Assembly (NCBI GenBank): GCA_007376445.1
Contig: VMGF01000001.1
Coordinates: 114,875 to 178,874, forward strand
DNA length: 64,000 nucleotides
Source of the DNA: Parcubacteria group bacterium Gr01-1014_3
GTDB taxonomy: Bacteria; Patescibacteriota; Minisyncoccia; UBA6257; WO2-44-18
Direction of reading: 5' to 3'
Shown: positions 2,261-52,863 of the stretch, piece by piece
Layout: the number at the start of each line of letters is the position of its first letter
Position numbering within the stretch: position 1 is the first letter of the stretch
Position numbers and translations under genes: made by a program
Notes under the pieces: model-generated
Told to the model about the DNA's origin: nothing
The model's input: the letters and a program-made list of their open reading frames with translations, nothing else
Databases searched by the model: none

Positions 2261-2592
2261 AAGACTATCGCGGCGGCGTATTCACCGGAATGCGTTAAAG
2301 AAACCAGCGCTCGCCCTTTGACGCCCTTTATTCGTAATTCCGGTTTCCCGTCTTTACTATTAACAACTTCGATATTTTTTGCCTCATACACGCTTTTTCC
2401 TAAAGCTTTAACAGCCGCTTCCTTGGCGGCAAACCGCGCGGCAAAATGTTGATAAGGATTGCTTTTCGCTAAACAATATTTTATTTCTCTATCGGTAAAA
2501 ATTTTCTCATAAAAAGATACATTGCCTTGATAAGGCATTTTTCTAAATCTCCCAACTTCTTCAAGGTCTATGCCGATTTCTTGTTTTTTCAT
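2248..2592 (-). CDS. acpS: Holo-ACP synthase (4'-phosphopantetheinyl transferase, AcpS-type, 114 aa)
   Basis: GIDLEEVGRF...FAAKEAAVKALG...SLTHSGEYAAA is the AcpS family signature; size is typical. Confidence 0.85.
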   Translation of the reverse strand: MKKQEIGIDLEEVGRFRKMPYQGNVSFYEKIFTDREIKYCLAKSNPYQHFAARFAAKEAAVKALGKSVYEAKNIEVVNSKDGKPELRIKGVKGRALVSLTHSGEYAAAIVLWQN

Positions 2593-3617: not shown

Positions 3618-3642
3618 TTATAGTGAGTTTATCGAACTATAA

Positions 3643-5001: not shown

Positions 5002-5029
5002 CGATAAATATAACCAAAAAACCGGTCTT

Positions 5030-5758: not shown

Positions 5759-5770
5759 TGCTCATATTTT

Positions 5771-5802
5771 ACAATAAAAAAGCCCCGATTTCCATCGGGG
5801 CT
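5771..5802 (-). terminator. Rho-independent terminator after the transaldolase gene
   Basis: Perfect hairpin agccccgat-ttcc-atcggggct (5781..5802). On the minus strand it is followed by a T-run (plus-strand aaaaa at 5776..5780). Confidence 0.6.
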
Positions 5803-5804
5803 AA

Positions 5805-6488
5805 CTACTCTTTTAAAACTCCAGCGTCCTTTAGGAACTGCTTTTGCGTCTTCACGCTCATCTTGTTCATCAAAAGTTCCGGCAGAAACTTGGTCGGAAT
5901 TGTCACGATGTGGGCGCCAGCTTCGTAGGCCCTAAGTACATCATTCTTCTTTCGAATACTGCCAACGATGATCTCCGAAGGCAACCGATACTGATCGATC
6001 AACTCGCGAGTCTTTCGAATCTCGGCTGAACCATCCAGTCCGGTATCCATGATTCGCCGATACAGCAAGCTGACATACTTCGCTCCGGCCTTGGCCGCGG
6101 CGAAAGCCTGAAACCAGGTAATGCAAGCAGTGCAGTTGACCGCGATCTCCTGCTGAGCCAGCTCGCGAATCACGGCTAGGCGATCGGTGCCATCAGTTCC
6201 CAAGATCGGGATCTTAATCGTCGTACCCTCATAATCCAGCTCATTCACGAACGACTTCGCCTGCTTCAGCATTTCATCGGGTGAATCACTGAACACTTCC
6301 ACGCTCAAAGAAATCGGTATGGGAGTGTATTTGCGGATCAATTCAACGATCTGCTTCCAAGCCGTCATCGGCTCAGTAACGCCAGCATTCTTCAATATGG
6401 TCGGATTCGTGGTGATGCCGTCCAAGAGGCCGGTCTTCAGCCAGCGATCGATTTCTTTGAGATCGGCGGTATCTAGAAAGGGCTTCAT
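5805..6488 (-). CDS. Transaldolase / fructose-6-phosphate aldolase family (short Tal/FSA type)
   Basis: MKPFLDTADLKEIDRWLKTGLLDGITTNPTILK is the Tal/FSA N-terminus, and IKIP holds the Schiff-base lysine. Start moved to the internal ATG at 6488, which has a GGAGG Shine-Dalgarno 9 nt upstream and forms an ATGA overlap with the upstream gene's stop. The longer track ORF to 6566 is probably over-extended. Confidence 0.8.
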   Translation of the reverse strand: MKPFLDTADLKEIDRWLKTGLLDGITTNPTILKNAGVTEPMTAWKQIVELIRKYTPIPISLSVEVFSDSPDEMLKQAKSFVNELDYEGTTIKIPILGTDGTDRLAVIRELAQQEIAVNCTACITWFQAFAAAKAGAKYVSLLYRRIMDTGLDGSAEIRKTRELIDQYRLPSEIIVGSIRKKNDVLRAYEAGAHIVTIPTKFLPELLMNKMSVKTQKQFLKDAGVLKE

Positions 6489-9230: not shown

Positions 9231-10233
9231 AGATTTTTTCGACTATCTTAAGCATTTCATAAGCATCCTTGCCGGAAACCGCCGGCTCACGATTTTCTTT
9301 GATGGCTGAAACGAATTCCGCGATCAATCTTTCTAAAGAAGTTTCTGATGTTTCCTTATCAAATACAACCACCTGCTCGGTCGGCGGGTTACGGAACTCC
9401 GGATCTCGCTTACCAATGATCAAACGCTCCGGACCAACATATCGATTGTCCAATCCTTCGATCGTAAGATAGCCGTCCGATCCCATGATCTCAAAAGAGT
9501 GCACCCATTTCCACTGTGTCCAGCTCACATGGATCGAAGCTACACGTCCATCTTGGGTTTTTAAAAGGGCGAAACCATTATCCTCCACTCCATTTTTCCA
9601 AAATAAAGTCGGTGTAAAACCAGTCACTTCCGGAAATTCTCCTAAGAATTGCCTGGATAGATCGATCATATGGCTTCCCTGATCCAGCAACTCGCCGCCA
9701 CCGCTCATTTCTTTATTGAATCTCCATTCGTTGGCATAGCCTGGGCGTCCACCAAAACCATATCTGGCGCGCACAAAAAGAATCTGCCCGATCTCGCCTT
9801 TGTCAACTAACTCTTTAGCCATTAAAAAAGCCGGATGATAACGATGATTGAATCCAATCATGTATTTCGCGCCAGTCTTCTCAGCCATCTTGATTGCCTG
9901 GGCAATCTCAACGCTACTAACACCTCCCGGCTTTTCGGAAAGAACATGCTTATTATTTTTCAAAGCCTCGATGGCAATTTCGGTTAAAAATTTATGCGGC
10001 GTAACAATAACTACCGCGTCCACATCCGCGCTCTTAACAACTTCACGCCAATCCAATTCGGCGCGACAGTCTTTTATCTCTTTGGCTAAGACTTCGGCTC
10101 TTGGCTTATCCTGATCGGAAATACAAACCAAAGAAACATTCGAAGAATGTTTAAGCGCGTGCGCCCATTTGGTGCCCATGCCACCGGCGCCAATTAGCGC
10201 GACCTTGATTGTGCCCGAATTGATCATTACCAC
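9214..10233 (-). CDS. Gfo/Idh/MocA family oxidoreductase, 339 aa
   Basis: KVALIGAGGMGTKWAHAL N-terminal Rossmann fold and the EKP motif (HVLSEKP). Confidence 0.85.
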   Translation of the reverse strand: MVMINSGTIKVALIGAGGMGTKWAHALKHSSNVSLVCISDQDKPRAEVLAKEIKDCRAELDWREVVKSADVDAVVIVTPHKFLTEIAIEALKNNKHVLSEKPGGVSSVEIAQAIKMAEKTGAKYMIGFNHRYHPAFLMAKELVDKGEIGQILFVRARYGFGGRPGYANEWRFNKEMSGGGELLDQGSHMIDLSRQFLGEFPEVTGFTPTLFWKNGVEDNGFALLKTQDGRVASIHVSWTQWKWVHSFEIMGSDGYLTIEGLDNRYVGPERLIIGKRDPEFRNPPTEQVVVFDKETSETSLERLIAEFVSAIKENREPAVSGKDAYEMLKIVEKIYAQNK

Positions 10234-10272
10234 GATACTATAACAGAAAAGTTAGTTTTTTCAATCTTACCG

Positions 10273-10341
10273 CCTCCCTTTTCGCTACACGCAAAAGGGA
10301 GGGGTGCTGCGCAAATAAAAAACCCCGAACATTGTTCGGGG
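10273..10341 (-). terminator. Rho-independent terminator (10323..10341 hairpin plus U-tract) and a second 10-bp-stem hairpin (10273..10302)
   Basis: ccccgaa-cattg-ttcgggg is followed on the minus strand by TTTTTTATTT. Upstream hairpin is cctccctttt-(10 nt loop)-aaaagggagg. Located 7 nt after the stop of the 10349..11278 gene. Confidence 0.6.
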
Positions 10342-10348
10342 GGGGTCT

Positions 10349-11278
10349 TTATATATTGTACTTCTTCTTCATTCTGGCGATGAATTCTTCCAGGGCATAT
10401 GGGCTTCCCTTAAATTTCAGTTCTGCCGCGGCCTTGGACATAAAGCCACACATCACATGCGGCTCCAAATAAGAAGCCTGGATTGATATTGTGGGTCCAC
10501 CAATCATCTCGGCAATTTCTGAAGTCGAATAATGCTTACCGGAGCTGATATTAAAAGCATCTCCAAGTAGTGGCGCCGCAATACGCATTGCTTGAAGATT
10601 CGCGACAACTACGTCGTCCACGCTAACAACCGATCGTTGCTGTTGGCCATCGCCAATGATAGTAAGTGGTTGGCTATGAATCCTGGCATACAAAAATCTT
10701 TCGACAACACCCGGGAAAGGAACCTTGCCGCTAACGGCCAACTCCGATCCAAAAACATTGTAATAGCGTAGCGAAACCGTATCCACTCCTTCATAGCTGG
10801 CAAATTGCCGACAAAGGACTTCACCAAAGTACTTGGTAGATCCATAGGCATTCATCGGTTTTGGCGAATCAGTCTCTGTCGCAATCGCCCTGTCGTTCTC
10901 TCCATACACTGACGCCGAAGCCGAATATACAACTCGCCCTACGCCATTCTTCTTAGCCGCCAGAAGTACGTTCATCGTACCCTTAACATTCACATCGATT
11001 GCCAAATCTGGGTTTTTAATGCAATCCGTAATCTTCGAATAAGCCGCGCAATGAAACACGCCATCAACTCCAGCGAAACAATCTTCTAACGCCTTTCTGT
11101 CACGAACGTCCGCGACCCAGAAATCAACGCGACTCTGATCGATCTTAGGCTCGTCAAGATAAGAACTGCGTGGATTTCCGACATAGCAAATCACCACCTC
11201 GTTATCCGGCTGCTCAAGAAGTTTTCTCACAATCGCGGAACCAATGAACCCAGCGCCGCCGGTGACCGCGTATCTCAT
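10349..11278 (-). CDS. NAD-dependent nucleotide-sugar epimerase/reductase (SDR family), 309 aa
   Basis: MRYAVTGGAGFIGSAIVRKLL N-terminus and YGSTK catalytic motif. Confidence 0.8.
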   Translation of the reverse strand: MRYAVTGGAGFIGSAIVRKLLEQPDNEVVICYVGNPRSSYLDEPKIDQSRVDFWVADVRDRKALEDCFAGVDGVFHCAAYSKITDCIKNPDLAIDVNVKGTMNVLLAAKKNGVGRVVYSASASVYGENDRAIATETDSPKPMNAYGSTKYFGEVLCRQFASYEGVDTVSLRYYNVFGSELAVSGKVPFPGVVERFLYARIHSQPLTIIGDGQQQRSVVSVDDVVVANLQAMRIAAPLLGDAFNISSGKHYSTSEIAEMIGGPTISIQASYLEPHVMCGFMSKAAAELKFKGSPYALEEFIARMKKKYNI

Positions 11279-11889
11279 CAGATGCCCTCCGAAATAAAGT
11301 TTGAGTAATAAGTACTGTCTTCGATCAACAGCGCGGCGAAGATGCCGGCCGCCGTTGCCAAATCCCGAATCGCTCCACTTCCAACCATTTGCAGAACCTC
11401 ATCTCGGGTACAAATCAAACACTCGACACCTTGAAGCTCATCTTGCTTGGCCTGATCGGTAAGCTGACAATCCAAAGCGACGTACAGTCGGCAAGGATTG
11501 TCGACTCGGTCAGAAAGCGGATAAAACTTATCGCCGATTTTCTTAATCGACAACGGAAGATAACCAACTTCTTCTTTCATTTCTCGAATGACCGAGAAGT
11601 ACCAGCCATCATCGCTAGGTTCGCGACTACCGGCCACGCCTTCGATCGTAACTCCCGCGACCGGCTTAAATTGCCTGGTCAAGATAAATCTTCCGTCCCG
11701 CAAACGAGGAATCACCATCACATACCCACCATTTTTTGCGGTAAGACGGAGAAAATTTTTCATCTCTTTGCCATTATCAAATTTCACGTCAACCAAATCT
11801 GCCGTCACCCACTTATCATCATGGATAACTTGCCGAACCGAAATCTCAGCGCTTTTGGCGATACCCAAGTATCCTCCTTTGGTTATCAA
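11278..11889 (-). CDS. NUDIX hydrolase, 203 aa
   Basis: Nudix box GVAGSREPSDDGWYFSVIREMKEEVGY (Gx5Ex7REUxEExGU). Confidence 0.75.
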   Translation of the reverse strand: MITKGGYLGIAKSAEISVRQVIHDDKWVTADLVDVKFDNGKEMKNFLRLTAKNGGYVMVIPRLRDGRFILTRQFKPVAGVTIEGVAGSREPSDDGWYFSVIREMKEEVGYLPLSIKKIGDKFYPLSDRVDNPCRLYVALDCQLTDQAKQDELQGVECLICTRDEVLQMVGSGAIRDLATAAGIFAALLIEDSTYYSNFISEGI

Positions 11890-11949
11890 GAAACCGCTAT
11901 TGTTATACCAGAAAAATGATTTTTTTTCAACTTTATAAAAAACCCGCCC

Positions 11950-13491
11950 TTAGGGGGCGGGGGTCGCGGGATTCGTAGAATCCCAACGATTTCCAATATT
12001 CTTCTTCAAGCGTTCAGCGACATAGGCCGGCGGGTTAACCGTTCGCCAGGCCCATTCACGGAGCTCAAGAACTCGCTCTGGTGAGATAACGGTATTTTTC
12101 AATACCGGCCGGTGCCAGTTCATCGTGTCCGGATCGAAATTCGGATCAAGATGACCTTTCTGAATCGCGTAATCGTACAGCTGACATCCCGGGAACGGAA
12201 TTGGAATAAAGAACGAACAGTACTTGGCGCCGGCATCCACCGCTCGCTTCGCGTACTCCACGCTCTTCATCAGTTCTTCCTCAGTCTCATCCGGAAATCC
12301 GATCATCATGTTCACGGGGCAAGTAATTCCAACCCGGGAAGCAATCCGAATCATCTCGATAATGTCCATTGTCGGAAGATGCAGTTTGCCGGTAGAGTAC
12401 TTATCCAGAATCCGCTGTGAGCCGGATTCAATCGGGAAAACAATCTGATCAAAACCGGCATCACACAAGAGACGAAGATAGTCCTCGTCGGTATCGAGTT
12501 TTCCGGTCAACTTATTGCGAACCAAGAAATGAACCAGATTCACGCCGTTCACGTCAGCGATGCGCAGCCCCGCGTTAAGAAGATAGGTGAAAATTTCTTT
12601 CACTCTCGCCTTCTTGGCAAGCAAGCTGTCGTCTTCAAAATAAATCTTTTGCACGCCGAGGCTCTTCAGGGTCTCGATCTCTTTGATCACCCTGGGCACC
12701 GACTTCACGCGCAAGTTGCCGATATCTTCCTTGAATTCACGCTCTTTCGAGATATGGCAGTAGGCGCACTTAAACGGGCAGCCACGCGAAGTCATAATCG
12801 GCGCGTACATCATCTTTTCTTCCAAGACCACATCGCCATGTGGTGAAAGGATCTTGGCGTACTTTTTCAGCGGCGACTTATGCCAAGCCGGAATCGGGAG
12901 TTCATCCAGATCCATGCTGGTATCGCCAGACTGGACGGGATTGCCCATCACTCGGCCGTTGTGCATAAACAAAGTCCCACTGACATCATCGATCGATTCG
13001 CCCTTTGCCCACTTCTCGATCAAGCGGACGATGATCTTTTCGCCTTCGGTCGTACAAATAACATCAACGAGCCCGTTGCTCAAAAATCGCTCGGGCATGT
13101 TGCGCGCGTTCACCCCGCCGCTGATGACCAGCATTTCGGGATTCACTTCCTTAGCGATCTTGGCGACCAGGAGCGCCATTCGCGTCTGGGGCGTAAAATT
13201 CGAGTGCACTCCGACGACATTGTAGCCACCCTTAGCGATCACCTCGCGAATCCGTTCGTCCGGCATACCGATGCGGATCAGTCCGTTCTGTTGCGGAATA
13301 CCTTTGTAAAAAGTGTCTTCGAGCGTGTCCTGATCAGTACCAACCGACGCATCCAGGATATCTGCTTCAATACCGGCTCGCTCTAACGCGGCGGCCAGAT
13401 ACAAAGGACCAAGCGATCCATCGGGACGAGCTGTCTCGGTCGGATTCAGCTGATTTGGCGGATAAATGAGCAGAACTTTCGGTGTTTTCAC
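11950..13491 (-). CDS. B12-binding (cobalamin-dependent) radical SAM enzyme, class B, 513 aa
   Basis: N-terminal B12-binding-like domain (VLLIYPP...GPLYLAAALERAGIEADILDA) followed by the radical SAM CxxxCxxC motif (TSRGCPFKCAYCH). Confidence 0.8.
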   Translation of the reverse strand: MKTPKVLLIYPPNQLNPTETARPDGSLGPLYLAAALERAGIEADILDASVGTDQDTLEDTFYKGIPQQNGLIRIGMPDERIREVIAKGGYNVVGVHSNFTPQTRMALLVAKIAKEVNPEMLVISGGVNARNMPERFLSNGLVDVICTTEGEKIIVRLIEKWAKGESIDDVSGTLFMHNGRVMGNPVQSGDTSMDLDELPIPAWHKSPLKKYAKILSPHGDVVLEEKMMYAPIMTSRGCPFKCAYCHISKEREFKEDIGNLRVKSVPRVIKEIETLKSLGVQKIYFEDDSLLAKKARVKEIFTYLLNAGLRIADVNGVNLVHFLVRNKLTGKLDTDEDYLRLLCDAGFDQIVFPIESGSQRILDKYSTGKLHLPTMDIIEMIRIASRVGITCPVNMMIGFPDETEEELMKSVEYAKRAVDAGAKYCSFFIPIPFPGCQLYDYAIQKGHLDPNFDPDTMNWHRPVLKNTVISPERVLELREWAWRTVNPPAYVAERLKKNIGNRWDSTNPATPAP

Positions 13492-22883: not shown

Positions 22884-24860
22884 GTGTCTTTAGGTTTACA
22901 AAGAGCACTCATATTGTGCATAATCTTGATGATGAAGTCAACCATACAAAAAATTCAGAATGAGCTTTATTACAGCCTAAATCGTTATCTTGGCTCTAAA
23001 CAAAACGGTCCGGAAGATGAAGCCATTAAAATAACTAATGGTTATAAAAAACTTCCAGGACTGGCGAAAAATACTCCAACCGCGCCGCAAACTTTAGAGG
23101 TGCCAGAATTAAGGCTGTCGGACTATAAAAAAACGCCTTATTTTAATACCCTAACCAACCTCGCCAAGACAGTTCAGGCTGAATTAAAACCCTTTATAAA
23201 AGCCTTTGTTGTCCATGGAAGCTTAGCCACAATGGACTTTATCCCCGACTTCAGCGACCTGGATACGTTTGTGGTCGTAAAGAAAGAAGTTTGCGCGAAC
23301 ACCAAGCTACTAAGCCAACTCAGAGATAAAGTCGTTCAAGCTCAGAAACTACTTTCCGAAATAGATTCGCTCGCCCATCATGGTTTTATTTTTTGCGCTG
23401 AACAAAATCTCTCCTATTACCCCCAGCACTATCTTCCCGTAACGGTATTCCGGTACGCGAAAAGTTTGGACGGACCGGCAAAGATCCAATTTAATATCCG
23501 GGATTCAGCGGAAGAAGCAAAAGAAAATTTCTATCACTACTACGATGTCTTCCAAAAAATCGCTAAAACCGGAAAGATGGAAAATAAACCGGGCAGCAAA
23601 CTTTACCAATTAAAATGGTTTGTGAGCATGCTCCTTTTAATGCCGAGCCTTTATCTTCAAGCCAAGGGAATTTATCTCTACAAGAAATTTTCTTTTGATT
23701 TTGTTCGGCATCCATTTCTGGAAAAGCTTAGCTTGGTCAGAAAAAACTTTAACAAGACGGCAGAAATTTTAGGTGAAGGTTATTTGAAAGAAGCGGCAAA
23801 AATGCTGAACGAATGGGCATCTGGCCTGGAACAATTTGAAAAAGATCGGAAAATTATAAACCACCCGAGAAAAATTCCGTTGTCGGTTTACGGAAAAGCC
23901 CGGCGGGAATTAGTTAGTCACTTCCGGAAAAATTCGGATGTCTTGGCGTTTTATGAATATGGCACGGTCAAAGCCCCGGGCATCAGCGACCTAGACCTTA
24001 TTTTGGTCCTAAAAGAAAAACTCAAAAATCCCTTCCGATATCCGACAGGACCAAATATAGACAAAGTTGCCAAGGGAGGACTGATCATAATGACCAAGTC
24101 AGTCTTCGAAAATGTCCAAATTTTTGACCAAACAAATTTAAAAAAGCTTTTCGGCCAAGATATCAAAGTAAAACAATTAAGCAAAAAGGAATTGGAATTG
24201 CGATCTATCGTTAGTGTCGCTGACTGGTTGCCGGAACGCATACTCCGACTGATCGGCATGCTTCGCGCCAATCCCCTCGATGTTCAGCATGCCCTTCGGT
24301 ATACACGCTCCTTCGCTTATTCATTAGAAAACGCGGCGCGCCTGACCGGCCTGAAAGATTACGATAAGTTTCTATGGGAACTACAAGAACTGCGGAGCCA
24401 ATGGAAACCGTTGAAAATAGAGCAGCTGCGGAGCTTAATTAAAAGAGGTGTTTATTGGGGCTATGAAGCCCTTAGCCGTTTTACTGAAAAATATTTCTCC
24501 GACCCTCAGCCTGCTTCCGGAGAACTTGAGTTATTCAAAAATCAAAAAATCGTTTTTGCCGATCAGCCGAGCAAGGTTGATGCCGATTGGGCCATCAGCG
24601 CTTCTCAGCAAAGATCATCCGACATCGTAGTCGTCGACCCACGGCTCGCATCGCAATTCTTTACTTACAGCCGACAGCCGGGAATTTTAGCTAAGCAAAT
24701 GCGCCGGCAACTTAATCTCAAGAACGGCCAGCTTATAAAAAATAAAAACCACCGACAATTCCTCGTTGATAAGATAAGGCTAGCTAACCACTGCGCCGAA
24801 TTTCTTAAAAGAGAAGGCTTTAAATCCGGCCTCTATCGTTTCGGATTTTATCTTAAGTAA
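22884..24860 (+). CDS. Large protein with two nucleotidyltransferase-fold (LicD-like DxD) motifs; candidate CDP-alcohol phosphotransferase, 658 aa
   Basis: HGSLATMDFIPDFSDLDTFVVV and YGTVKAPGISDLDLILVL both fit G[ST]-x(8-11)-D-x-D (NTase fold; LicD-like GxxxxxxxFIPxDxDID). Confidence 0.5.
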   Translation: MSLGLQRALILCIILMMKSTIQKIQNELYYSLNRYLGSKQNGPEDEAIKITNGYKKLPGLAKNTPTAPQTLEVPELRLSDYKKTPYFNTLTNLAKTVQAELKPFIKAFVVHGSLATMDFIPDFSDLDTFVVVKKEVCANTKLLSQLRDKVVQAQKLLSEIDSLAHHGFIFCAEQNLSYYPQHYLPVTVFRYAKSLDGPAKIQFNIRDSAEEAKENFYHYYDVFQKIAKTGKMENKPGSKLYQLKWFVSMLLLMPSLYLQAKGIYLYKKFSFDFVRHPFLEKLSLVRKNFNKTAEILGEGYLKEAAKMLNEWASGLEQFEKDRKIINHPRKIPLSVYGKARRELVSHFRKNSDVLAFYEYGTVKAPGISDLDLILVLKEKLKNPFRYPTGPNIDKVAKGGLIIMTKSVFENVQIFDQTNLKKLFGQDIKVKQLSKKELELRSIVSVADWLPERILRLIGMLRANPLDVQHALRYTRSFAYSLENAARLTGLKDYDKFLWELQELRSQWKPLKIEQLRSLIKRGVYWGYEALSRFTEKYFSDPQPASGELELFKNQKIVFADQPSKVDADWAISASQQRSSDIVVVDPRLASQFFTYSRQPGILAKQMRRQLNLKNGQLIKNKNHRQFLVDKIRLANHCAEFLKREGFKSGLYRFGFYLK

Positions 24861-25730
24861 CTACTTGCGGCGCAACTTTTTCATGATCGGCTCCTCGGAT
24901 GGAAGGATGCGCTTAACGCCATCGCCCCTGGACTTCTCGTAGTTACGAATTTCTTTAACAAGCATCTGCAGTCCTTTCTTTTCCAGGCTAGCCGCCTGAT
25001 CAGTACCCCACATTGAGCGATCAAGCGTGATGTGCCTTTCCACCATGCAAGCTCCCAGCGCGACTGCCGTTACCGATGACACCACTCCTTTTTCGTGGCC
25101 ACTATAACCGATTGGAATTCCGTAGCGTTGCTGAAAAGCCGGGATAACATGCAAATTAAGTTCGTGTAGCTCCGCCGGGTAAGTGGAGACCGCGTGTAAA
25201 ACCACTAAGTTTTCTTTACCCAAAATTGAAACGGCATGATCTACCTGCTCTTGATTGCTCATGCCAGTAGAAAGAATTATGGGCTTGTTCTTGCTCTTAA
25301 TGTGAAGCAACAATGCGTCGTCGGTCAAAGAAGCGGAAGCTATTTTATAAAAAGGCGGGTTAAATTTATCCAAAAAGTCCACGCTATCTTCGTCCCAAGG
25401 AGAAGCTGACCAAAGGATTCCCTTTTGTTTGCAGTAATCAGCGATGACCCCGTAGCTTAGGTCATCAAATTCCATTTTGTGGCGATAATCAATATAGCTG
25501 ATATAACCCCACGGAGTTTCCCGCATTTTTTCCCATTGATCACGAGGCACGCACTTTTCCGGAGTTCGTTTTTGGAACTTCACCGCGTCGCAACCGGCAT
25601 CTTTAGCCATATCGATCAGTTTTTTAGCAACCGCCAAATCACCGTTGTGGTTAATGCCGATTTCGGCAATTACGAACACGGGTTGTCCTGTTCCAACTAA
25701 GCGATCTCCTATTTTTACTGGTTTACTCAT
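24861..25730 (-). CDS. Nonulosonic acid (N-acetylneuraminate/pseudaminate/legionaminate) synthase, NeuB family, lacking a C-terminal SAF domain, 289 aa
   Basis: VFVIAEIGINHNGDLAVAKKLIDMAKDAGCDAVKFQ and IGYSGHE fit the NeuB/SpsE family. Confidence 0.85.
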   Translation of the reverse strand: MSKPVKIGDRLVGTGQPVFVIAEIGINHNGDLAVAKKLIDMAKDAGCDAVKFQKRTPEKCVPRDQWEKMRETPWGYISYIDYRHKMEFDDLSYGVIADYCKQKGILWSASPWDEDSVDFLDKFNPPFYKIASASLTDDALLLHIKSKNKPIILSTGMSNQEQVDHAVSILGKENLVVLHAVSTYPAELHELNLHVIPAFQQRYGIPIGYSGHEKGVVSSVTAVALGACMVERHITLDRSMWGTDQAASLEKKGLQMLVKEIRNYEKSRGDGVKRILPSEEPIMKKLRRK

Positions 25731-25765: not shown

Positions 25766-27969
25766 TCAAATGTTTCTGGAATTGAAAATCCACTTTGGAT
25801 TAAACAAACTCCAATAATCATATTTAAAAACTACACTATGAAGGCCGGCGGGAACAAAAATTCCCGGAAAGACAGTGTTAACTTTATACATTGGCACTTC
25901 TTGGTCGTCAAGGAAGGCTCTCCAGCCGGGAAGATAATTCTGGGTGAAACCGAACATTCTACTATGATGTCCCTGAAACCACTCGCCTTGAAAGATCGGT
26001 ATATTTCCGATGGATCAGATTTAAAGTCGGTAATATTGGCGAAATAGACCAACGGCTTGGCAGTCGGATTATTATAGATGGCTATCGGAATATGGGCAAT
26101 ATCATCATCGCCAACCCTCAGATTAAGAGACCACTCTCCGATGCGCGGCAAATCTATTTTCGGGGCAAAGTCGTTATGATCAAAGGGAAGAAAGGTCATG
26201 AAATAACGTATTCCCAAAAAATCCGCCAATGGGAGCCGGCTTGCCAATAAGCGATATTTCTCTATTATCGAAAAATCTCGATTATCTTTAATAATGTATG
26301 TCTTATCGAGTTTTTTTTCACCTCCAGTCGTAACTAATTGGCGAGTACCAACTAATGCCATTAATCGACCCATTTCGACATTAAGCAAGGGCTCATTGGC
26401 TTCTAAATTCTCCACGCCATAGAGTAGCTGGAAGTTGGGACGGTAAGTCGGCAAATTAAATGAGGAATTATAAAGAAAATCATCTTTGGGCGGAGTATAT
26501 CCCGGATGAAAGATAGAAAAAAATAAATCGTCCCAGTCATCCGTAAAAAGAGGCAAGACCCTCTCTCTGGTCTCCCTCAGAAAGGCGGCGGTCGGCGGAT
26601 CTTTCTCATAAAAAGAACGGGATACAATAGTAGATATATTAAAGCGGTAAAAAATAACTATAAATTCTAAAAATGCCAAAATGCAAAGCGCTAAGACTTT
26701 GTGGCTGCGAAAAGAGAATGGATAATCTAAGGCTATAGCCAAAGCAATCGCAAGAATAATTGCGGAAATCATTACCGAAAATAAAGTATCCTGATTCTTA
26801 AAAACACCAAGGGCTAAAAGCAAAAAGATGCTTATCCCGACGCCGATTAGACACAGAAGCCCCGTTGCTTTCTTTTTGTTTTGTTCAAAAAACGACATGA
26901 AGTAACTACTCCCATATCCAACAAGAACGGCCGCGGCAAAAGTTCCTATCAACATAAACCGGGCGGCGCCCTGGAAAAGATTAAAAATCGGCAGGTGACT
27001 CAATAATTGAAAAAGAGGTGAGCCGTGAATTGATAAAACAACGGCAATTAAAAATACGCCTCGAAAAAAACCAATCATTTCTCTTTTAACCCAGAATGAA
27101 AGAATTAAAAATATTAGCGGAACCATCCCGGGATACAAATACGCGTCAAGGCCTCGACTGGAAGTCAGATGGAAAAAATTCAGCAATTGTTCCGGCAAAA
27201 TCGCGTACCCTTCATGGGCAAATCCGCCACTTCGTTGTGAAAATTGAGTCATAACATAAGTTGGCACCAACTGAAGCAACCCAATGCCCGTTCCGATCAG
27301 AAAAATGAGGAAAAATGCCGAAAGGATTCGAGGAAAAATCTTTTTGTATCTATCCCTCCAACCCAAGAACAGAACGAAGCTAAAAGCGGCTGACGCGATA
27401 TACAAAATGGGAAAATAAGAAGACATTAGCCAGCCGTACCCGATCAAAAGTCCTCCTAAAAAAATGAGGAGCGCCCGCTTCTTTGTAGAATCGCTCTTAT
27501 ATATCTTAATTAAAATCAAAAAAAGTGCCGGCTGGATAAAAAGCGCGGTTCCTAATACTAAATCTCTCGCAAAGTGAATGTTGCCGGCAAAATAAGCGAA
27601 GGCGCCGATAAAAGACGGCCAAATACCTATATCGAGTTCTCGCATAAATAAAATAAAGAAGAGGCATGCCAATGACAGCGTAAGCCACAGTCCCCAATAA
27701 TGGACAGTTGCTGCCGGGAGAATATACAAAAAAAGATAAATTGGCGCGAACGGGAAACCGCCTATGGAAATAAAGTTAGGAAATCCCGTGGCTATATAAG
27801 GATTCCAAAATGGGCTTTCGCTTTTTGTAATGGCATTCTTATAAAATGTCATCTGGGGGATATTTAATTCAACGGAATCGGTCCCCATCACATAGGCGCC
27901 AATTAAAACCGGAATAGAAACCACCCCGATTATGAAAAAGGAAATTAAAAGAATTTTAGTTGTGTTCAT
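25766..27969 (-). CDS. YfhO-like polytopic membrane protein (GT-C-like candidate), paralog 1, with a reading-frame discontinuity near 25950
   Basis: Main frame runs 25831..27969 (track ORF trimmed to MNTTKIL..., which abuts the stop of the upstream MT). A conserved C-terminal beta-domain (FTQNYLPGWRAFLDDQEVPMYKVNTVFPGIFVPAGLHSVVFKYDYWSLFNPKWIF) is encoded in a different frame at 25766..25957. Confidence 0.5.
25851..25949. repeat. 99-bp segment 100% identical to 29612..29710 (copy 1)
   Basis: Direct reading: ggaacaaaaattcccggaaagacagtgttaactttatacattggcacttcttggtcgtcaaggaaggctctccagccgggaagataattctgggtgaaa appears in both YfhO-like paralogs, although their flanks are diverged. Confidence 0.9.
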
Positions 27970-27971
27970 TT

Positions 27972-28775
27972 CTACTTCTTTCTGGCAATTACATAAAAAC
28001 CGCAAGAAATATATTCAGCGCCGCGATAGCGAATCAAGATCAAATCTAAAAGCTTGATGGGAAAAGTAACTATTACTAAAAACATCCAAATAATATCTTT
28101 TAAAATACGGACATTAAAAGACAACAATAAGGATAACCATTCCTGGGCAATGAATAAAAAGGCGGATGTCGGTCCAATAATTGGCTTAACTTCTACTATC
28201 TCCATATCCGAAAATAAAAAACGGAGTCCCTCCGCCGTCCAACGAGAATAATCATGCGGCGAAGGATGAAATGGCATTAAAAAATTAGTGGCCAGATAAA
28301 GGTAGCCGCCGCTTTTTAAAACCCGCTTCATCTCTCTAATTCCTTGAAGTGGGTTTTCCAAATGCTCTAAGACCCAGGCAGAGACAATGCCATCCAACGA
28401 TTCATCATTAAAGGGCAGGTCCTGGGCATCCGCCAGCACATCTACCTCATTCCACGGATGAATGTCCACGTTGATGATTTCCGGATGCAAACGACGGCTT
28501 CCGGAACCGATTTCCGCGACTAAACCACTAGACGAAACATATTTGAAGATGGACCTTGGCGGCTTCCCCAAGAAAAGCGCCGGCGCAAGAACGTAGAAAA
28601 TGAAAGAATAAAGCCTAGGGAATCGACGGAAAAAAGTCTTCAATCGCACGATAAACCCTGTATGCAGATCCCGCTCCGTCTGCGCATATATATCGTCTTT
28701 GATAAAAAGCGGCCTTCCCTCAATAAATCTCCTAGGTGGTATTTTAAATTTTAAACGCTCCAGCTTCGATTTCAT
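27972..28775 (-). CDS. Class I SAM-dependent methyltransferase with C-terminal membrane helices, paralog B (267 aa)
   Basis: VAEIGSGSRR ... LKSGGYLYLATNF; about 50% identical to 14611..15405. Confidence 0.75.
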   Translation of the reverse strand: MKSKLERLKFKIPPRRFIEGRPLFIKDDIYAQTERDLHTGFIVRLKTFFRRFPRLYSFIFYVLAPALFLGKPPRSIFKYVSSSGLVAEIGSGSRRLHPEIINVDIHPWNEVDVLADAQDLPFNDESLDGIVSAWVLEHLENPLQGIREMKRVLKSGGYLYLATNFLMPFHPSPHDYSRWTAEGLRFLFSDMEIVEVKPIIGPTSAFLFIAQEWLSLLLSFNVRILKDIIWMFLVIVTFPIKLLDLILIRYRGAEYISCGFYVIARKK

Positions 28776-28827
28776 AAATTATACTATACTACACATCGTC
28801 ATATTTATGATAGAATAGTTTTGTTAA

Positions 28828-29562
28828 ATGAATAAAGGCTACGTAGAAAGGTTTGCCTGCGCGGTCCGTAATTGGCGAGCGCGCCAGCTTTTTAAAGCTC
28901 TGCGAATTTACTGTCGTGGCGCGATATTAGACGTCGGTGGATGGGATTTTTATTTGAAAGTCCGTAATGATCCGAAAATTAAATTTGAAACTTGGACTAA
29001 TTTGGAATCAACCGAAAATCAATTGGCGAAAATCGAAAATGATCCTCGTTATAAAACCATACTCGGCGATGGCTGCAAAATGGCCTTGCGGGATAGTAGT
29101 TTCGATACGGTCATAAATATACAGGTGCTAGAGCATGTCTTCGAACCCATACAAATGGTTAAAGAAATCGGAAGGGTGCTTAGACCAAATGGGTATGCGA
29201 TTTTCCTAATTCCAGGCACTAGTGTTCTCCATATGGCTCCGGAACATTATTATAATTTTACTCGTTTTTGGATCAAGCAAGCAGTTAAAAAAGCCAATCT
29301 TTCTATCGTTGAATTTAAGCCTATCGGTGGCCTCTGGAACACGACCGCTACCCATCTTTTCAGATTTTTCTTCCAAAGCCTGCGCCTTGAAGGATATTCA
29401 ACTCCAGACGTAAAGCGAAATTTGTTTTTTTACCTATTCTATCCATTGATGGTAATCTATGCCATCGTGAACATTCCGATAAACCTATTTCTAGGCTGGG
29501 GGGATCTCACCGAAGACGCCAATAATTTTTTGGTGGTGGCTAAAAAATCCACCTTGGATTAA
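28828..29562 (+). CDS. Class I SAM-dependent methyltransferase (type 11-like), 244 aa
   Basis: ILDVGGWDF (motif I variant) ... VINIQVLEHVFEPIQMVKEIGRVLRPNGYAIF (post-I/II/III motifs). Confidence 0.7.
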   Translation: MNKGYVERFACAVRNWRARQLFKALRIYCRGAILDVGGWDFYLKVRNDPKIKFETWTNLESTENQLAKIENDPRYKTILGDGCKMALRDSSFDTVINIQVLEHVFEPIQMVKEIGRVLRPNGYAIFLIPGTSVLHMAPEHYYNFTRFWIKQAVKKANLSIVEFKPIGGLWNTTATHLFRFFFQSLRLEGYSTPDVKRNLFFYLFYPLMVIYAIVNIPINLFLGWGDLTEDANNFLVVAKKSTLD

Positions 29563-31706
29563 ACAAGCTCCAGTAATCATATTCAAATTGCACGGTATGG
29601 ATGCCGGCAGGAACAAAAATTCCCGGAAAGACAGTGTTAACTTTATACATTGGCACTTCTTGGTCGTCAAGGAAGGCTCTCCAGCCGGGAAGATAATTCT
29701 GGGTGAAATTCGTATATTTCCATCGGATCTGATTTGAAAGCGGTAACATCGGCGAAATAGGCCAGTGGTCTGGCGTTCGGATTTAAATAAGTTGATATCG
29801 GAAGACTGGCGGCTTCTTCGTTGCCAATGGCTAGATCAAGAAACCACCTTCCAACTAACGGCAGGGTTATCTTCGGATCAAGCTGGTCAAAAGCGAAGGG
29901 GCTCATAAAATAACGTATTCCCAAAAAATCCGCCAATGGGAGCCGGCTGGCCAGTAAGCGATGTTTCTCTATGACCGAAATATCTCGACCATCTTTAACC
30001 ACGTATGTCTTGTCCAGCTTTTTTTCACCACCGTCTGTAACCAGTTGCCGGGTACCTAAAAAAGCCAGCAGTCTTCCCATCTCCACATTAAGAAGAGGAT
30101 CATTGATTTCCAGGGTCTCTATTCCATAAAGCAACGAGTAATTGGGGCGGTAAGTCGGTAAATCAAGTGAAAGGTTATAAAGAAGATCTTCCTTGGGTGG
30201 TGTATCCCCAGGACGAAATTGATAAAAAAATGTATCGTCCCAGTCATCCACGAAAAGCGGCAAGACTCGGCCAGGCTGTCCCTTAAAAAAATCTAAAGTT
30301 GCTGGCTTCATTTCATAAAGACGCCTATCGATCACAAACGACTTATTGAATGAATAAAAGAACATGGCCATGTCTAAAACCGTAAGAATTGTTAGTAACG
30401 GTAAAAGCAGTAGTAGTTTTTTAACAGACAGCTTAAAAATTAAATAAACCAGGGTTAAAAAAACAGCGGAAATAAGCACCGAATAAAAAACGGTCTGGGT
30501 TCGAAAAACAAGAATGGTCAGGATCATTAAAGAGGCCATTCCAATTGTAATTGCCGTTAATCTTTTTTTAATTATCGCGCCGCCTAAAACATATTCACAC
30601 CCGAAACCCACTAAAACCGATCCGGCAAATGCGCCGACAAACATAAACCTCGCCGATCCCTGGAAATAGCTGAACAGGGGTAATTTAATAATCAACCAAA
30701 ACAATGGAGATCCTTTAATGGAGATTGCTAGAGCAATCAAAAAAAACCATCGGAAAAATTTTGCAATGGGATTTTTACTGAAAAAAGAGAAAATAAGCAG
30801 CATTAGTGGCGCGATGCCTAAATACAAATAAGCTTCGAGACCTCGCTGCGGCGTAAGGTGCACAAAGTTCAACAGTTCCTTAAAACCAATCGCATATCCT
30901 TGGGCAACCTGATAGGCCAGCCCGGCGCTTCGTCCCGAAAACTGGGCCATGATATATACGGGAACCAACTGCAACGCGCCAATTAAACTGCCGATTAAAA
31001 ATGATGCAGCCAGCGCCGCGATTAATCTATAAAAAACTATTTTGCCATGTTTTATACCAAGAAAAACTACGAACGCGAGGAGAGTGGTAAAAATATAGAG
31101 GTTTCCAAAATACACCACAGTTGTCAGCCATCCCCAGGCCACCGCGAGTGAGCCAATCCCCGCGTATAAAACAAATTTTTGCCAACCAGAACTTTTCAAA
31201 ATCATCATAATAACCAAAAAAAGAACTGCCTGAACCAAGAGGATATTTATTACGGTGGCATTTTGTGACCAATAGAAATCTCCGATGATATAGCTTAGGC
31301 CGCCAATCAACGAACCCCAAGTTCCGATACCTAGTTCGCGTAGAAAACGAACAGAGAAAAAAAGTGTTAGCGACAGCGCAAACCACAAATACCAATAATG
31401 GGCCGCTATAGGAGATAAAAAGCGCGCCAATTGAACCACTGGCGCGAACGGACTGCTTAAATTGCTGATAAAATTCGGAAATCCAACGGCTATATACGGG
31501 TTCCAAAACGGGCTTTCGCCTTTCGCGAACGCGTCTTTAAAAAAAGTGAGCTGAGGAATCATCAACTCTGAGGCATCGGCTGAAAGCACTTTGCTGCCGC
31601 TAAGCATCGGAAACAGGAGAATGAAAAATAAAACAAAGCAAACTATCAAAAGACCCCACCAGGTGCTGACAAGATTCCGAACACGCTCTAAAATAGAAGG
31701 TCGCAT
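29540..31706 (-). CDS. YfhO-like polytopic membrane protein, paralog 2, with a reading-frame discontinuity near 29710
   Basis: Main frame 29667..31706 (679 aa). Conserved C-terminal domain (FTQNYLPGWRAFLDDQEVPMYKVNTVFPGIFVPAGIHTVQFEYDYWSLFNPRWIF) lies in another frame at 29540..29749. Homologous along its length with 25831..27969. Confidence 0.5.
29612..29710. repeat. 99-bp segment 100% identical to 25851..25949 (copy 2)
   Basis: See copy 1. Confidence 0.9.
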
Positions 31707-49519: not shown

Positions 49520-50641
49520 CGAAGCCTGGTAGTCCCGCAAATACTCCGCTTTGGTGCGGAAATGATCGGCGGTCGTGATTCCTTGGCTGCTGAATGCGTT
49601 ATGCTCTGTCGGATTCATGCCGATGAACTGATTTATCCTATCCGCCAAAGCCTTCCAATCTCCAACTGGCACCACGAACCCATTTTGGCCATTTATCACG
49701 AATTCATTAGCCGGCGCTACGTCAGTCATGATTACCGGTAAGCCATTTGCCATTGCCTCAATAGGAGATCTTGCGCCGCCTTCATAATTAGAAGTTAATA
49801 CGAACAAGTCAGCCGTTTTGTAATAAGAAATAATATCATTGGTCCAGGGCTCAAATATGACATTGTCGGCTAATCGATTTTTTTCAATAAGAGCTTTGAG
49901 TTTTTTTTCTTCCGGTCCGCCGCCAACAATTAATAACAAAGACCCGGGGTTTCTTTTCATGACTTCGGCCATCGCGCGTATTGCTAAGCCAATATTCTTC
50001 TCGGTGCTTAACCGAGAAGCTGCCAAAATAATAAAATCGTGATTGGAATATTTTTTGCGCAGATTAGTTTTAATAGGATAATGCTTGACCGAATCAAGAT
50101 CAAAGATAATTGGCAAAACAACAATCTTAGCGGCGGGAACATCTAAAATGTTTACCAATGAGCGCTTAACTCTTTCGCTAACAACGCGAATCCCGTCCGC
50201 TTTTTTGATAAGCCATTTTCCCAACAAAACTCTAGCTTTATTTTTAAATGACTCCTTCCAAAAATAGGGGCTGAGAAAATCGCTGTGACTCTGAATTTGG
50301 AAGGACAATCGAAATTTTATTTTTAAAAAATAACTCACCAGGGCAGTTTCAAACGGATCCTGAGAGCTTATGACCGCATTATCAACTAGAAACTGAGAGT
50401 TACGGATGATTTTCTTGCCAATCAAATAAGCGTCAATAAAATATAATGGTTTGAATTGAGTGTTGGTCGGATGCGCAAAAACATTTTTACTCAGCTCTTG
50501 ATCATGCATTCCCAATTTCTTATGGGTGTAAACGATTATATGTAGTTCATTAAACAATTTTCCATATTCAATCATCCTCTCCCATGTTGGAGAATTTTTT
50601 ATGAAGACATTCTGATCCGTTGAGAGCATTAAAATTTTCAT
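49478..50641 (-). CDS. GT4 glycosyltransferase, 387 aa
   Basis: EGGARSPIEAMANGLPVIMTDVAPANEFV GT4 motif. Confidence 0.8.
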   Translation of the reverse strand: MKILMLSTDQNVFIKNSPTWERMIEYGKLFNELHIIVYTHKKLGMHDQELSKNVFAHPTNTQFKPLYFIDAYLIGKKIIRNSQFLVDNAVISSQDPFETALVSYFLKIKFRLSFQIQSHSDFLSPYFWKESFKNKARVLLGKWLIKKADGIRVVSERVKRSLVNILDVPAAKIVVLPIIFDLDSVKHYPIKTNLRKKYSNHDFIILAASRLSTEKNIGLAIRAMAEVMKRNPGSLLLIVGGGPEEKKLKALIEKNRLADNVIFEPWTNDIISYYKTADLFVLTSNYEGGARSPIEAMANGLPVIMTDVAPANEFVINGQNGFVVPVGDWKALADRINQFIGMNPTEHNAFSSQGITTADHFRTKAEYLRDYQASLEVTLDSIFKNSK

Positions 50642-52863
50642 AGCGTTGATAGAAGTTGAGCTACTTGATTGATCGTATTTTCGATTGAGAATTGTTTAAC
50701 TTTTTCCTTGGCGTTTTTCGTAATCATCCCGCGAAATTCCGGATCACTATCAATCTTATGAATTGCCGCCAGAATCTCTTGTTTGTTATTCGGCTCAACC
50801 AAAATACCCTCTTTATTATTCTCCACGATTTCTGATAAATTGCCGATATTCGTGGTAATAACCGGCGCGCCAACATGCATCGCCTCAACTAACTGGAATG
50901 AGAAGCTTTCGAATGAAGTATTCAAAATAAAAATACCGGACTGCGCCAGTCGCCTTAACAACTCTTCCCTGGGAATCTGACCACTCAACAAAACCCTGCC
51001 TTGTAACTTTAAACTTTCAACTTTTAACTTAAGGGTTTCACTCTCGGGGCCATCGCCAATAATCTCAAGGCGCCAATCTGGTAATTCTTTCATGATTTCA
51101 ATTAGCACATCAAATCCTTTCCATGGCACCAGGCGACCGGCCGAGATAATAATCTTAGAGCGCTTAGCGCTTAGCGTGTTAGGATATAGGGGCTTTAAAT
51201 CAATTCCGTTATAAATTGCCCGGACTTTTTCCGGATGTTTGATCCAACCGCCAACCAGTTTCTGAAAATACTTGCTGGGTGTAATAACCGCATCGGCATT
51301 TCTTACGACAAACTTTTGAATCGCTCGCATCAATTCGACTCGCCAGCCATGTTTTTTGCTTTGAAATTCATCAATGCCGTCTTTTACGCCAAAACGCTGA
51401 ACGGACTGCTCCCAGACATAGTCACCCGGCACCCGAAGGACAAAGGGACGACCGAGAAGCTTCGCCGCTAAAAGCGCCGGCAGGCCAACGCTAATCGTAT
51501 CTTGGGCGAAAACAATATCCGCCTTCCTTGCCCTGCGAAGCGCCTTAAAAAAATACAACAAGTGCCTAACTCCCGGCGGCCAGCCACGCACGAGGCGGAA
51601 CGGTAAAACCGCTACCCCAAATCCTCGTTTCGGTAATTCTCGCTCCAGCAAAACGGCATAGGTGGCCGGCCCGCCGATTTCCGGCGGATAAATACCGGTA
51701 GCCAGAAGGACACGAATCATGAATCTAGAATCGTGAATCATGGAACGAAAAATTTTGTCCATCTTCTGAGAAATTAAATCCCATGAATAGTTGGCCAAAA
51801 TCAACTTTCGCCCATTTTCCGCAAGCCGCTCGCGGAGCTTCTGGTCATTTATCAGCTCGCTGATTTTTTTAGCCAGATCTTCCGAATCTTCTGAATTACA
51901 GATCAAGCCGGTTTCATTATGTTTCAAAAAATCTACGATACCCCCGACCGGTGTTCCAATAACCGGCAAGCCAGCCGCCATGGCTTCCAAGAAGGAGTTG
52001 CCCAATCCTTCCGAGCGTGATGCCCTGACAAAAATCTCCGCGAATCCTAAATATTGAGGAATCTTATCCGCAGAAACTTGCCCTAAGAAGCTCACTCGTG
52101 AGTTAACCCCCATATCATGGGCTAACTTTTCCAACGATGCTCGATCTGGTCCATCGCCTAAAATTTGTAAAGAATAATCTTGATTCTTCAGCCTTGCGAA
52201 TGCGCTAATTAAAATATCGACTCCATTCTTATGGACTAACCGTGAAGTAGTTATTATTATTTTATCGTTATTCTTGATTCTTGATTCTTGATTCTTGATT
52301 CTTGCCAGGTCGACTCCATTCGGCACTACCTCGATCGGGCAGATCGCCCCATGGCGGCGCGCGAAGTCGGCCAAATATCCGCTAATAGCTTGAATATAGT
52401 CCGCTTTTTTAAAGATCAATCTCCAGAGCGGATAAAATAAACCGACGCGGGATAGAATATGCCTCTCGCTATCACCCTCCTGAAGAGTAAGTAACATCGG
52501 TATTGATGGATGACGCAGTTTAAAGAAAAGAGCGGCCAACCCGCCATAAGATGCCATCATTGCCCAAATAGCCTCAAATTTATTCTTCTGATGTTCGCGC
52601 TCAGCCGCCCGCCAAGCGCGAAAAATGTAGGTCAGCTTTTCCCAAAAACGTCCATAGTAATCGGCCGTAGTTTTTGCCGAATTGCCGGTTCCTAGTCGAA
52701 CAACTTTAGTATTTTTTGTTTCGGAGGTAGCTGGCCAGGAATCGTCGAACTTGTGGGTAAAGATCGTAAAGTGATCGTTAGATTGGCTAACAATCTCCTT
52801 AAGCGCTATTTCGGCTCCTCCTGAAAATGGATCATAGGCCAGGCTAAAGACGGCAAGTTTCAT
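50638..52863 (-). CDS. Tandem GT4-GT4 fusion glycosyltransferase, 741 aa
   Basis: Two GT-B units. The first begins MKLAVFSLAYDPFSGGAEIAL and ends EGLGNSFLEAMAAGLPVIGTPVGG. The second begins IRVLLATGIYPPEIGGPATY and ends ESFSFQLVEAMHVGAPVITTNIGN. Confidence 0.8.
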   Translation of the reverse strand: MKLAVFSLAYDPFSGGAEIALKEIVSQSNDHFTIFTHKFDDSWPATSETKNTKVVRLGTGNSAKTTADYYGRFWEKLTYIFRAWRAAEREHQKNKFEAIWAMMASYGGLAALFFKLRHPSIPMLLTLQEGDSERHILSRVGLFYPLWRLIFKKADYIQAISGYLADFARRHGAICPIEVVPNGVDLARIKNQESRIKNNDKIIITTSRLVHKNGVDILISAFARLKNQDYSLQILGDGPDRASLEKLAHDMGVNSRVSFLGQVSADKIPQYLGFAEIFVRASRSEGLGNSFLEAMAAGLPVIGTPVGGIVDFLKHNETGLICNSEDSEDLAKKISELINDQKLRERLAENGRKLILANYSWDLISQKMDKIFRSMIHDSRFMIRVLLATGIYPPEIGGPATYAVLLERELPKRGFGVAVLPFRLVRGWPPGVRHLLYFFKALRRARKADIVFAQDTISVGLPALLAAKLLGRPFVLRVPGDYVWEQSVQRFGVKDGIDEFQSKKHGWRVELMRAIQKFVVRNADAVITPSKYFQKLVGGWIKHPEKVRAIYNGIDLKPLYPNTLSAKRSKIIISAGRLVPWKGFDVLIEIMKELPDWRLEIIGDGPESETLKLKVESLKLQGRVLLSGQIPREELLRRLAQSGIFILNTSFESFSFQLVEAMHVGAPVITTNIGNLSEIVENNKEGILVEPNNKQEILAAIHKIDSDPEFRGMITKNAKEKVKQFSIENTINQVAQLLSTL
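52280..52314. repeat. Perfect heptanucleotide tandem repeat (ATTCTTG)x5 inside the tandem GT4 gene
   Basis: Direct reading: attcttg x5 (35 nt), preceded by (TTA)x3. On the coding strand it encodes ARIKNQESRIKNN, in the interdomain linker just before the C-terminal Rossmann domain (IITTSRL). Confidence 0.85.

Follow-up and report, generated by a model that had tools for sequence, protein, structure and literature searches.

Frame breaks in two neighbouring YfhO-like genes of a Parcubacteria genome are very probably artefacts of assembly at a shared repeat

Two neighbouring YfhO-family paralogues in the short-read metagenome-assembled genome (MAG) 'Parcubacteria group bacterium Gr01-1014_3' appear to be broken at the same nucleotide of a shared identical block. 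We are highly confident that assembly artefacts account for the frame breaks, for the 'tail ORFs' of 63 and 69 aa and for the truncated GenBank proteins, and that both genes are intact in the real genome. The significance is mainly one of data quality: two truncated 'hypothetical proteins' (G01um10143_165 and G01um10143_168), likely artefacts themselves, stand in GenBank and nr because of what appears to be a silent local misassembly. Any scan that flags paralogues in MAGs as split or frameshifted should begin by asking whether an exact repeat ends k-1 bases away from the break.

The two genes in the window

The window is the whole stretch of 64 kb that was analysed. The features that matter here are listed below, where L020 is the matching stretch of the independent assembly described in the next section.

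24861..25730, minus strand: NeuB (nonulosonic acid synthase), directly downstream of copy 1
25766..27969, minus strand: copy 1, a YfhO-family paralogue, with long ORF 25831-28005 (GenBank G01um10143_165, 712 aa) and a 63-aa tail ORF, 25766-25957
25851..25949, minus strand: 99-nt identical block, copy 1
Between 25950 and 25949, minus strand: junction 1, where 106 nt are absent (L020 9676-9781); the absent segment encodes DCKKPPPIVRGEIIITKEENGLVSLGTYSPNEQFLV
27972..28775, minus strand: methyltransferase, 267 aa, paired with copy-1-type YfhO genes, the pair being conserved in relatives
28828..29562, plus strand: methyltransferase, 244 aa, convergent with copy 2 and overlapping the copy 2 tail by 23 nt at its 3' end
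29540..31706, minus strand: copy 2, a YfhO-family GT-C glycosyltransferase gene, with a 679-aa ORF, 29667-31706 (GenBank G01um10143_168), and a 69-aa tail ORF, 29540-29749
29610..29708, minus strand: 99-nt identical block, copy 2
Between 29709 and 29708, minus strand: junction 2, where 152 nt are absent (L020 5765-5916); the absent segment encodes SFKASGFKDIIVECKDCKPQTFTTEGRIILAKRENGRVHLKTQSPSEQFLV

The block is an exact direct repeat (25851-25949 = 29610-29708), identical at 99 of 99 nt as the initial annotation had reported; its first range was right, and its second, 29612-29710, was off by 2 nt. This is the longest exact repeat within the window, and the two YfhO genes share only one other of at least 25 nt (41 nt, 26201-26241 = 29908-29948). 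A third exact repeat of that size, 28 nt and self-overlapping, lies outside the YfhO genes at 52270-52304. The identity of the block is not chance, because in 13 homologues the corresponding 33 codons vary freely at their synonymous positions; even the closest orthologue has an identity of 0.87 to it, differing at ~13% of positions.

In both large ORFs the gene-sense 5' edge of the block is precisely where the conserved frame is lost, and the YfhO C-terminus (PF09586 positions ~782-823 of 835) resumes in another frame as the 63- and 69-aa ORFs. Both observations agree with the initial annotation, as does a protein identity of ~49% between the copies, within its range of 45-50%. Its extra sequence in copy 1 is also present, at 46 rather than ~50 nt. 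Its description of the tail differences as mostly synonymous is overstated, because the copy 1/copy 2 alignment gives five synonymous and five non-synonymous codon differences 3' of the block. The argument drawn from them, that the tail frame has been under purifying selection, is valid, but it reflects the genes being intact. At the nucleotide level there are 11 differences in the ~72 nt 3' of the identical tract, and the 5' side is far more diverged. Against the orthologues L001 and L002, junction 2 shows the same gap as against L020, and microhomology at the junctions amounts to 0-1 nt.

Comparison with an independent assembly

NeuB served as synteny anchor and as the query by which an independent MEGAHIT assembly (ENA ERZ27284378, contig k139_87659, 265 kb) was retrieved. 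This assembly possibly comes from the same sample as the MAG, or from a sister sample. The contig matches the window at 100.000% identity over ~46 kb, with no mismatch, in stretches of 12,260 nt (L018), 13,591 nt (L019) and 20,612 window nt (L020, itself 20,870 nt long). L020 departs from the window in having exactly 152 nt more between 29709 and 29708 and 106 nt more between 25950 and 25949, with flanks that are 100% identical, and these two insertions at the junctions are the sole differences in the ~46 kb compared. The shortened junction sequences, with a slash at each junction, are ATATACGAA/TTTCACCCAG and GAATGTTCGG/TTTCACCCAG, and the intact ones are ATATACGAA/TCTTTTAAGG, TTCTTGGT/TTTCACC, GTTCGG/ATTGCAAA and TTTCTTGT/TTTCACC.

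With the segments restored both ORFs are continuous, giving 772 aa for copy 2 and 769 aa for copy 1, and these proteins align over their full length with homologues of 770-789 aa. The initial annotation had allowed for a single-nucleotide assembly error in each copy; what was found instead is two missing segments, present in an otherwise identical assembly. Comparison with orthologues, which it had proposed, shows that the related genomes all carry intact YfhO genes. We regard the frame breaks in the window as very probably not a real biological feature.

In L020 the exact repeat spans 101 nt (5915-6015 = 9780-9880). Each missing segment stops 2 nt within this repeat, and the window keeps its last 99 nt in each copy. 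Two other assemblies also break at the repeat, with overlaps that fit their own k: a contig of a third assembly (L022, ERZ27284376, k119_383442) begins exactly at window 25949, 99 shared nt before the copies diverge, and a Logan contig (L021) begins at window 25880, with 30 shared nt, Logan using k = 31.

How the segments may have been lost

We propose that a short, recent gene conversion left a 101-nt identical tract in both paralogues, and that the original assembler failed to resolve this repeat because its length equalled or exceeded that of the largest k-mer, which the overlap puts at 99 or 100. In each copy the downstream contig would therefore have started with the last 99 shared bases, and joining these contigs to the upstream sequence would have left out 152 nt in copy 2 and 106 nt in copy 1 without inserting any N. 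Neither length is divisible by three, which gives both genes an apparent frameshift at the same nucleotide, and the frame breaks, tail ORFs and truncated proteins would all follow from the omission. We infer that the 99 retained nt are the contig-end overlap expected of a de Bruijn assembler with a largest k of 99 or 100. IDBA-UD, whose largest k is 100 by default, would match this signature, as would MEGAHIT or SPAdes run at k = 99.

Overlaps at scaffold ends have been reported to equal n or n-1, where n is the largest k (Chen et al., 2020, Genome Res, PMC7111523). The present case resembles the local assembly errors at repeats of about k length described there in that the break falls right at the edge of an exact repeat, k or k-1 bases of overlap are kept (for the k deduced here), and a protein-coding gene of a CPR genome is corrupted in a way that is absent from a larger-k assembly. 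It differs in that unique sequence upstream of the repeat, 152 and 106 nt, was lost silently, with neither N in its place nor any duplication. The missing segments of the two copies have different upstream (left) ends, which speaks against the artefact model. A simple collapsed-repeat model leaves these ends unexplained, because under it the contigs should either join cleanly by their overlap or be separated by N, and no unique sequence should silently disappear.

Recombination between paralogues

In L020 the tract is identical at 101 of 101 nt, synonymous sites included, and has diverged flanks in both copies. We infer a short, recent gene-conversion tract between the paralogues; this part of the initial annotation's proposal stood, but nothing was pasted out of frame. 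As in the gene conversion (concerted evolution) of neighbouring paralogues elsewhere, a perfect tract lies within 3' regions that are otherwise ~62-80% identical (in 150-nt steps of the gene alignment), and the same pattern recurs in the relative L003, where three intact paralogues share exact runs of 88, 70 and 68 nt. Unlike typical cases, the tract is very short.

Hybrid YfhO genes are present in relatives, and tail 2 resembles the tail of the X-type protein P0003, with tail 1 resembling the tails of NeuB-adjacent genes. L001 and L002 carry a single gene before NeuB, and L008 and L009 have synteny blocks matching both halves of the locus. A scan of GTDB genomes (alignment A4) gave eight loci, all from intact relatives, the MAG itself lying outside that collection; a scan of JGI metagenomes for the left-flank pattern gave no matches. 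The 3' ends in this YfhO-like family recombine often, and the remaining biology is modest: neighbouring YfhO-like paralogues in CPR surface-glycan loci swap 3' ends by recombination. Such exchange is a familiar route to surface-polysaccharide gene diversity.

Alternative explanations

The MAG could in principle represent a subpopulation with two true out-of-frame deletions that inactivate both surface glycosyltransferases, for example if one copy was deleted and abortive gene conversion then trimmed the other at the homology boundary. The paralogues do recombine, the 101-nt tract is real, the shared runs in L003 and the hybrid genes in relatives fit such a history, and junction k-mers of pure de Bruijn contigs normally come from reads. 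We nevertheless consider real deletions very unlikely, since two independent events would both need an endpoint precisely 2 nt within the repeat, leaving 99 nt, and would be the sole two differences in ~46 kb of 100% identical sequence. The contigs of other assemblers end there too, each following its own k, and the 0-1 nt of junction microhomology is also against it. Microhomology-mediated deletion, SDSA with flap trimming, Campbell-type insertion and template switching were considered, and none gives both same-nucleotide ends without an extra coincidence; such mechanisms are moot because an intact independent assembly was found. It is very unlikely that some members of the population truly carry the shortened genes as alleles, with recombination at the 101-nt tract acting as an on/off switch of surface glycosylation; if true, both surface glycosyltransferases of an episymbiotic CPR bacterium would be turned off at once by recombination.

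An assembly problem at the repeat, raised by the initial annotation as a chimera, is right in spirit, but what is found is two segments missing at boundaries that look like contig ends. A chimeric path, with the tails of the copies swapped or a foreign contig inserted between them, would fit the 99-nt direct repeats that flank a 3.76-kb segment and the single gene before NeuB in L001 and L002. It is extremely unlikely: the k = 139 assembly spans the 101-nt repeat and has the same gene order and body-tail pairing as the window, the synteny blocks of L008 and L009 match both halves, and tail 2 resembles that of P0003 and tail 1 those of NeuB-adjacent genes. Relocation of the missing segments by inversion or a shufflon was also rejected, as a tblastn search with intact orthologues matched only the two copies in the window and no relocated fragment.

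The initial annotation also suggested a split gene, and a related reading has the transmembrane body and the ~65-aa C-terminal piece fused by ribosomal frameshifting instead of made separately. Both tails do have an ATG and an open frame, and their sequence carries a history of purifying selection. The probability of this reading is practically negligible. Each of the ~15 homologues has one uninterrupted ORF of 770-789 aa, and an intact version exists in the independent assembly. Frameshifting would have to be opposite in direction (-1 in copy 1, +1 in copy 2), and reading the overlaps by eye revealed neither an in-frame X XXY YYZ slippery heptamer nor an obvious Shine-Dalgarno sequence upstream of either tail ATG. 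Two beta-strands of one and the same C-terminal domain (E694-701 and E704-720 in the AlphaFold model of the orthologue P0002) lie within the missing 35-50 residues. An exhaustive HMMER search of a library of 1.84 billion proteins found no standalone tail family: the tail domain forms the C-terminus of proteins of ~700-830 aa, and short matches are also C-terminal, most with more sequence upstream of the match. There is no support for split genes, programmed frameshifting or paired pseudogenes. Among the overlapping ORF pairs elsewhere in the window, the three checked include no further split gene; all three are separate complete genes.

The YfhO family and its locus

Among the window fragments, the bodies give no match to the family profile PF09586 and the tails score 25.9 and 28.5 bits (gathering cut-off 28.5). 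In precomputed results for the intact versions, the 772-aa protein matches and the 769-aa protein matches weakly, and the homologues of 770-789 aa carry the domain. An AlphaFold2 model of P0002, with a mean pLDDT of only 66, predicts helices as far as residue ~456, with residues 596-761 forming a beta-rich C-terminal region. This predicted layout of a helical N-terminal part and a C-terminal domain is consistent with a YfhO/GT-C protein.

In Bacillus subtilis and Listeria, the GT-C glycosyltransferase YfhO adds sugars to lipoteichoic acid (Rismondo et al., 2018, PMC5836110). The window proteins are like it in their Pfam YfhO C-terminal motif, in the predicted long N-terminal run of helices ahead of a beta-rich C-terminal domain, and in the position of their genes in a cell-surface glycan locus. 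They are very distant from it, the bodies alone having no Pfam match. Glycosylation of surface polymers dependent on undecaprenyl-phosphate-sugar is known for the Bacillus and Listeria proteins alone and is putative here. The host and setting also differ, as the paralogues sit in a CPR genome, in a locus for nonulosonic-acid-type sugars (NeuB, CMP-sugar synthetase) with many methyltransferases.

Reading frames of the two YfhO paralogues

Two YfhO-like paralogues, putative GT-C glycosyltransferases here called copy 1 and copy 2, each appear as a long ORF (the body) and a C-terminal piece in another frame (the tail):

25831-28005 (true start 27969), minus strand, copy 1 long ORF
25766-25957, minus strand, copy 1 tail ORF, 63 aa
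29667-31706, minus strand, copy 2 long ORF
29540-29749, minus strand, copy 2 tail ORF, 69 aa

The two tails match the far C-terminal end of the Pfam YfhO model (PF09586, positions about 782-823 of 835), and the bodies have no Pfam or NCBIfam match. The genes carry locus tags G01um10143_168 and G01um10143_165 on the 400,406-bp contig of MAG Gr01-1014_3. The NCBI nr database holds the bodies as hypothetical proteins of 712 aa (G01um10143_165, 25831-27969) and 679 aa (G01um10143_168, 29667-31706). The tails are unannotated in GenBank, since the two bodies and two methyltransferases account for all of tags 165-168.

The initial annotation had reported a 99-nt block shared by the paralogues. Pairwise alignment and an exact-repeat scan confirm a perfect direct repeat of that length, with its second range corrected by 2 nt (25851-25949 = 29610-29708). 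A database query with a conceptual fusion of the copy 2 body and tail brought up some 15 homologues, 770-789 aa long, each a single ORF with PF09586. Protein alignment, together with DNA alignment against the orthologous loci L001 and L002, shows that 106 nt are absent from copy 1 after ...GAATGTTCGG and 152 nt from copy 2 after ...ATATACGAA, and that the sequence resumes in both at the identical nucleotide, TTTCACCCAG, the first base of the block. Neither length is divisible by three, which accounts for the opposite shifts of the two copies. A search of the rest of the window, which contains no N, found no coding sequence for the missing peptide.

Independent assembly of the same population

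Exact-sequence lookup of the window proteins led to another assembly of this population, ENA ERZ27284378, contig k139_87659 (264,686 bp), whose name suggests a MEGAHIT-style assembly with a largest k of 139. Three loci from this contig match the window at 100.000% identity, over 12,260 nt (L018), 13,591 nt (L019) and 20,612 nt (L020). In a reconstruction test, L020 equals the window plus 152 nt at the 29709/29708 junction and 106 nt at the 25950/25949 junction, with no other difference. With these segments restored, the genes are continuous, encoding 772 aa (copy 2) and 769 aa (copy 1), and have the complete conserved C-terminal domain (...FK.SGF.DIIVEC.DC...G.II...E.NG.V.L.T.SP.EQFLVFTQNYLPGW...). 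The exact repeat in L020 is 101 nt, GT plus the 99 nt.

Besides the block, the sole exact repeat of at least 25 nt common to both genes is 41 nt long (26201-26241 and 29908-29948, the LASRLPLADFLGIRYF region); it is mostly identical in the orthologue L001 as well, and unaltered in the independent assembly.

Origin of the frame breaks

We consider it very probable that local misassembly produced the frame breaks and, with them, the two short ORFs (63 and 69 aa) and the truncated proteins in GenBank. The 99-nt identity itself is real, and is best read as part of an ordinary, short gene-conversion tract of 101 nt in the true sequence. Of the origins first proposed, gene conversion between the paralogues is supported for this tract, but not the pasting of a cassette out of frame. 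The proposal of an assembly chimera at a repeat holds as far as local misassembly, as L020 contains the 152 and 106 nt, but a swapped or chimeric path through the repeat is contradicted: the k = 139 assembly keeps identical gene order and body-tail pairing, and synteny with the related loci L008 and L009 also speaks against it.

A split gene with a separately translated C-terminal domain, or a programmed frameshift, is for practical purposes excluded. Either would need opposite shift directions in the two copies, and no slippery site was seen on reading the sequence. In an AlphaFold model of P0002, the homologous protein of L001 (mean pLDDT only 66), the missing residues take in two beta-strands belonging to the C-terminal domain. 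Exhaustive HMMER searching places the tail domain at the C-terminus of ~700-830-aa proteins; shorter hits are likewise matched at the C-terminal end, and most of them extend upstream of the match. The breaks could instead be real deletion alleles carried by a subpopulation, which we regard as a slim chance, kept because a simple collapsed repeat would not lead one to expect silent loss of unique sequence.

Both missing segments end 2 nt into the 101-nt repeat, and therefore each window copy retains exactly the last 99 shared bases. This has the look of a de Bruijn contig begun at a branch point, with a largest k of 100 (overlap k-1) or 99 (overlap k). The pattern recurs at this site in two further assemblies. 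A 1,205-nt contig of ERZ27284376 (k119_383442) begins right at window 25949 and carries 99 shared nt, and a Logan contig of SRR8863434 begins at 25880, where 30 shared nt precede the first paralogue-specific base, 25850. We take the Logan k to be 31, in which case the 30 shared nt would equal k-1. The simple collapsed-repeat model predicts a clean overlap join or an N run, whereas here 150 and 104 nt of unique sequence have vanished silently upstream of the repeat, a loss that scaffolding, gap closing or N removal may have caused. Scaffold-end overlaps of n or n-1 have been described by Chen et al. (2020; PMC7111523), who suspect IDBA-UD assemblies to be especially prone to local assembly errors and corrected 13 such errors in one curated 1.13-Mb CPR genome. 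The public samples behind ENA ERZ27284378 (L020, L005) and Logan SRR8863434 (L021, L007) include, besides this organism, at least two related ones with paralogue sets of their own (P0007/P0012 and P0013/P0014). K-mers common to several organisms in the conserved C-terminal block may be a further source of assembly trouble.

Recombination among YfhO paralogues

The genes belong to a surface-glycan locus that also encodes NeuB, a CMP-sugar synthetase, aminotransferases, epimerases and many methyltransferases, and relatives have two or three YfhO paralogues each. Recombination swaps the 3′ third among these genes. Nucleotide identity between copies 1 and 2 is 44-66% in the first ~1450 nt, then mostly 70-80%. 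The related loci L016 and L017 differ in their 5′ bodies but are 79-98% identical in the 3′ thirds and NeuB; in L003, stretches of 88, 70 and 68 nt in this region are shared exactly among three intact paralogues. Across 13 homologues, synonymous positions in the block vary freely, so the perfect identity of the block between the two copies requires a recent homogenisation event. In the exchange of gene bodies, recombination seems to be anchored by the conserved 3′ end.

The YfhO-like paralogues of these CPR glycan loci are mosaic, with the 5′ two-thirds only ~45-65% identical, and the 3′ third (plus downstream NeuB) in some cases 79-98%:

L016, 4465-7905, versus L017, 311-3715, mosaic paralogues
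L003, genes 1174-3540, 3543-5900 and 10001-12367, mosaic paralogues
Window, 25766-26500 versus 29540-30200, mosaic paralogues

In L001 (64-2388, P0002) and L002 (10001-12370, P0003), a lone YfhO gene lies directly between a 247-aa methyltransferase and NeuB. P0002 is copy-2-like across the 5′ 1450 nt, and its last ~70 nt and the neighbouring NeuB match copy 1, as expected if paralogues had recombined with deletion of the intervening 3.8 kb.

Elsewhere in the window, a 28-nt exact self-overlapping repeat with a 7-nt offset (52270-52304), a short tandem repeat of period 7, falls within a 741-aa glycosyltransferase gene (50638-52863). Convergent with NeuB is a gene for a 658-aa protein (22884-24860, plus strand) with a weak nucleotidyltransferase match (NTP_transf_2 / Polbeta), and counterparts of 638-648 aa are found at that position in all related loci.
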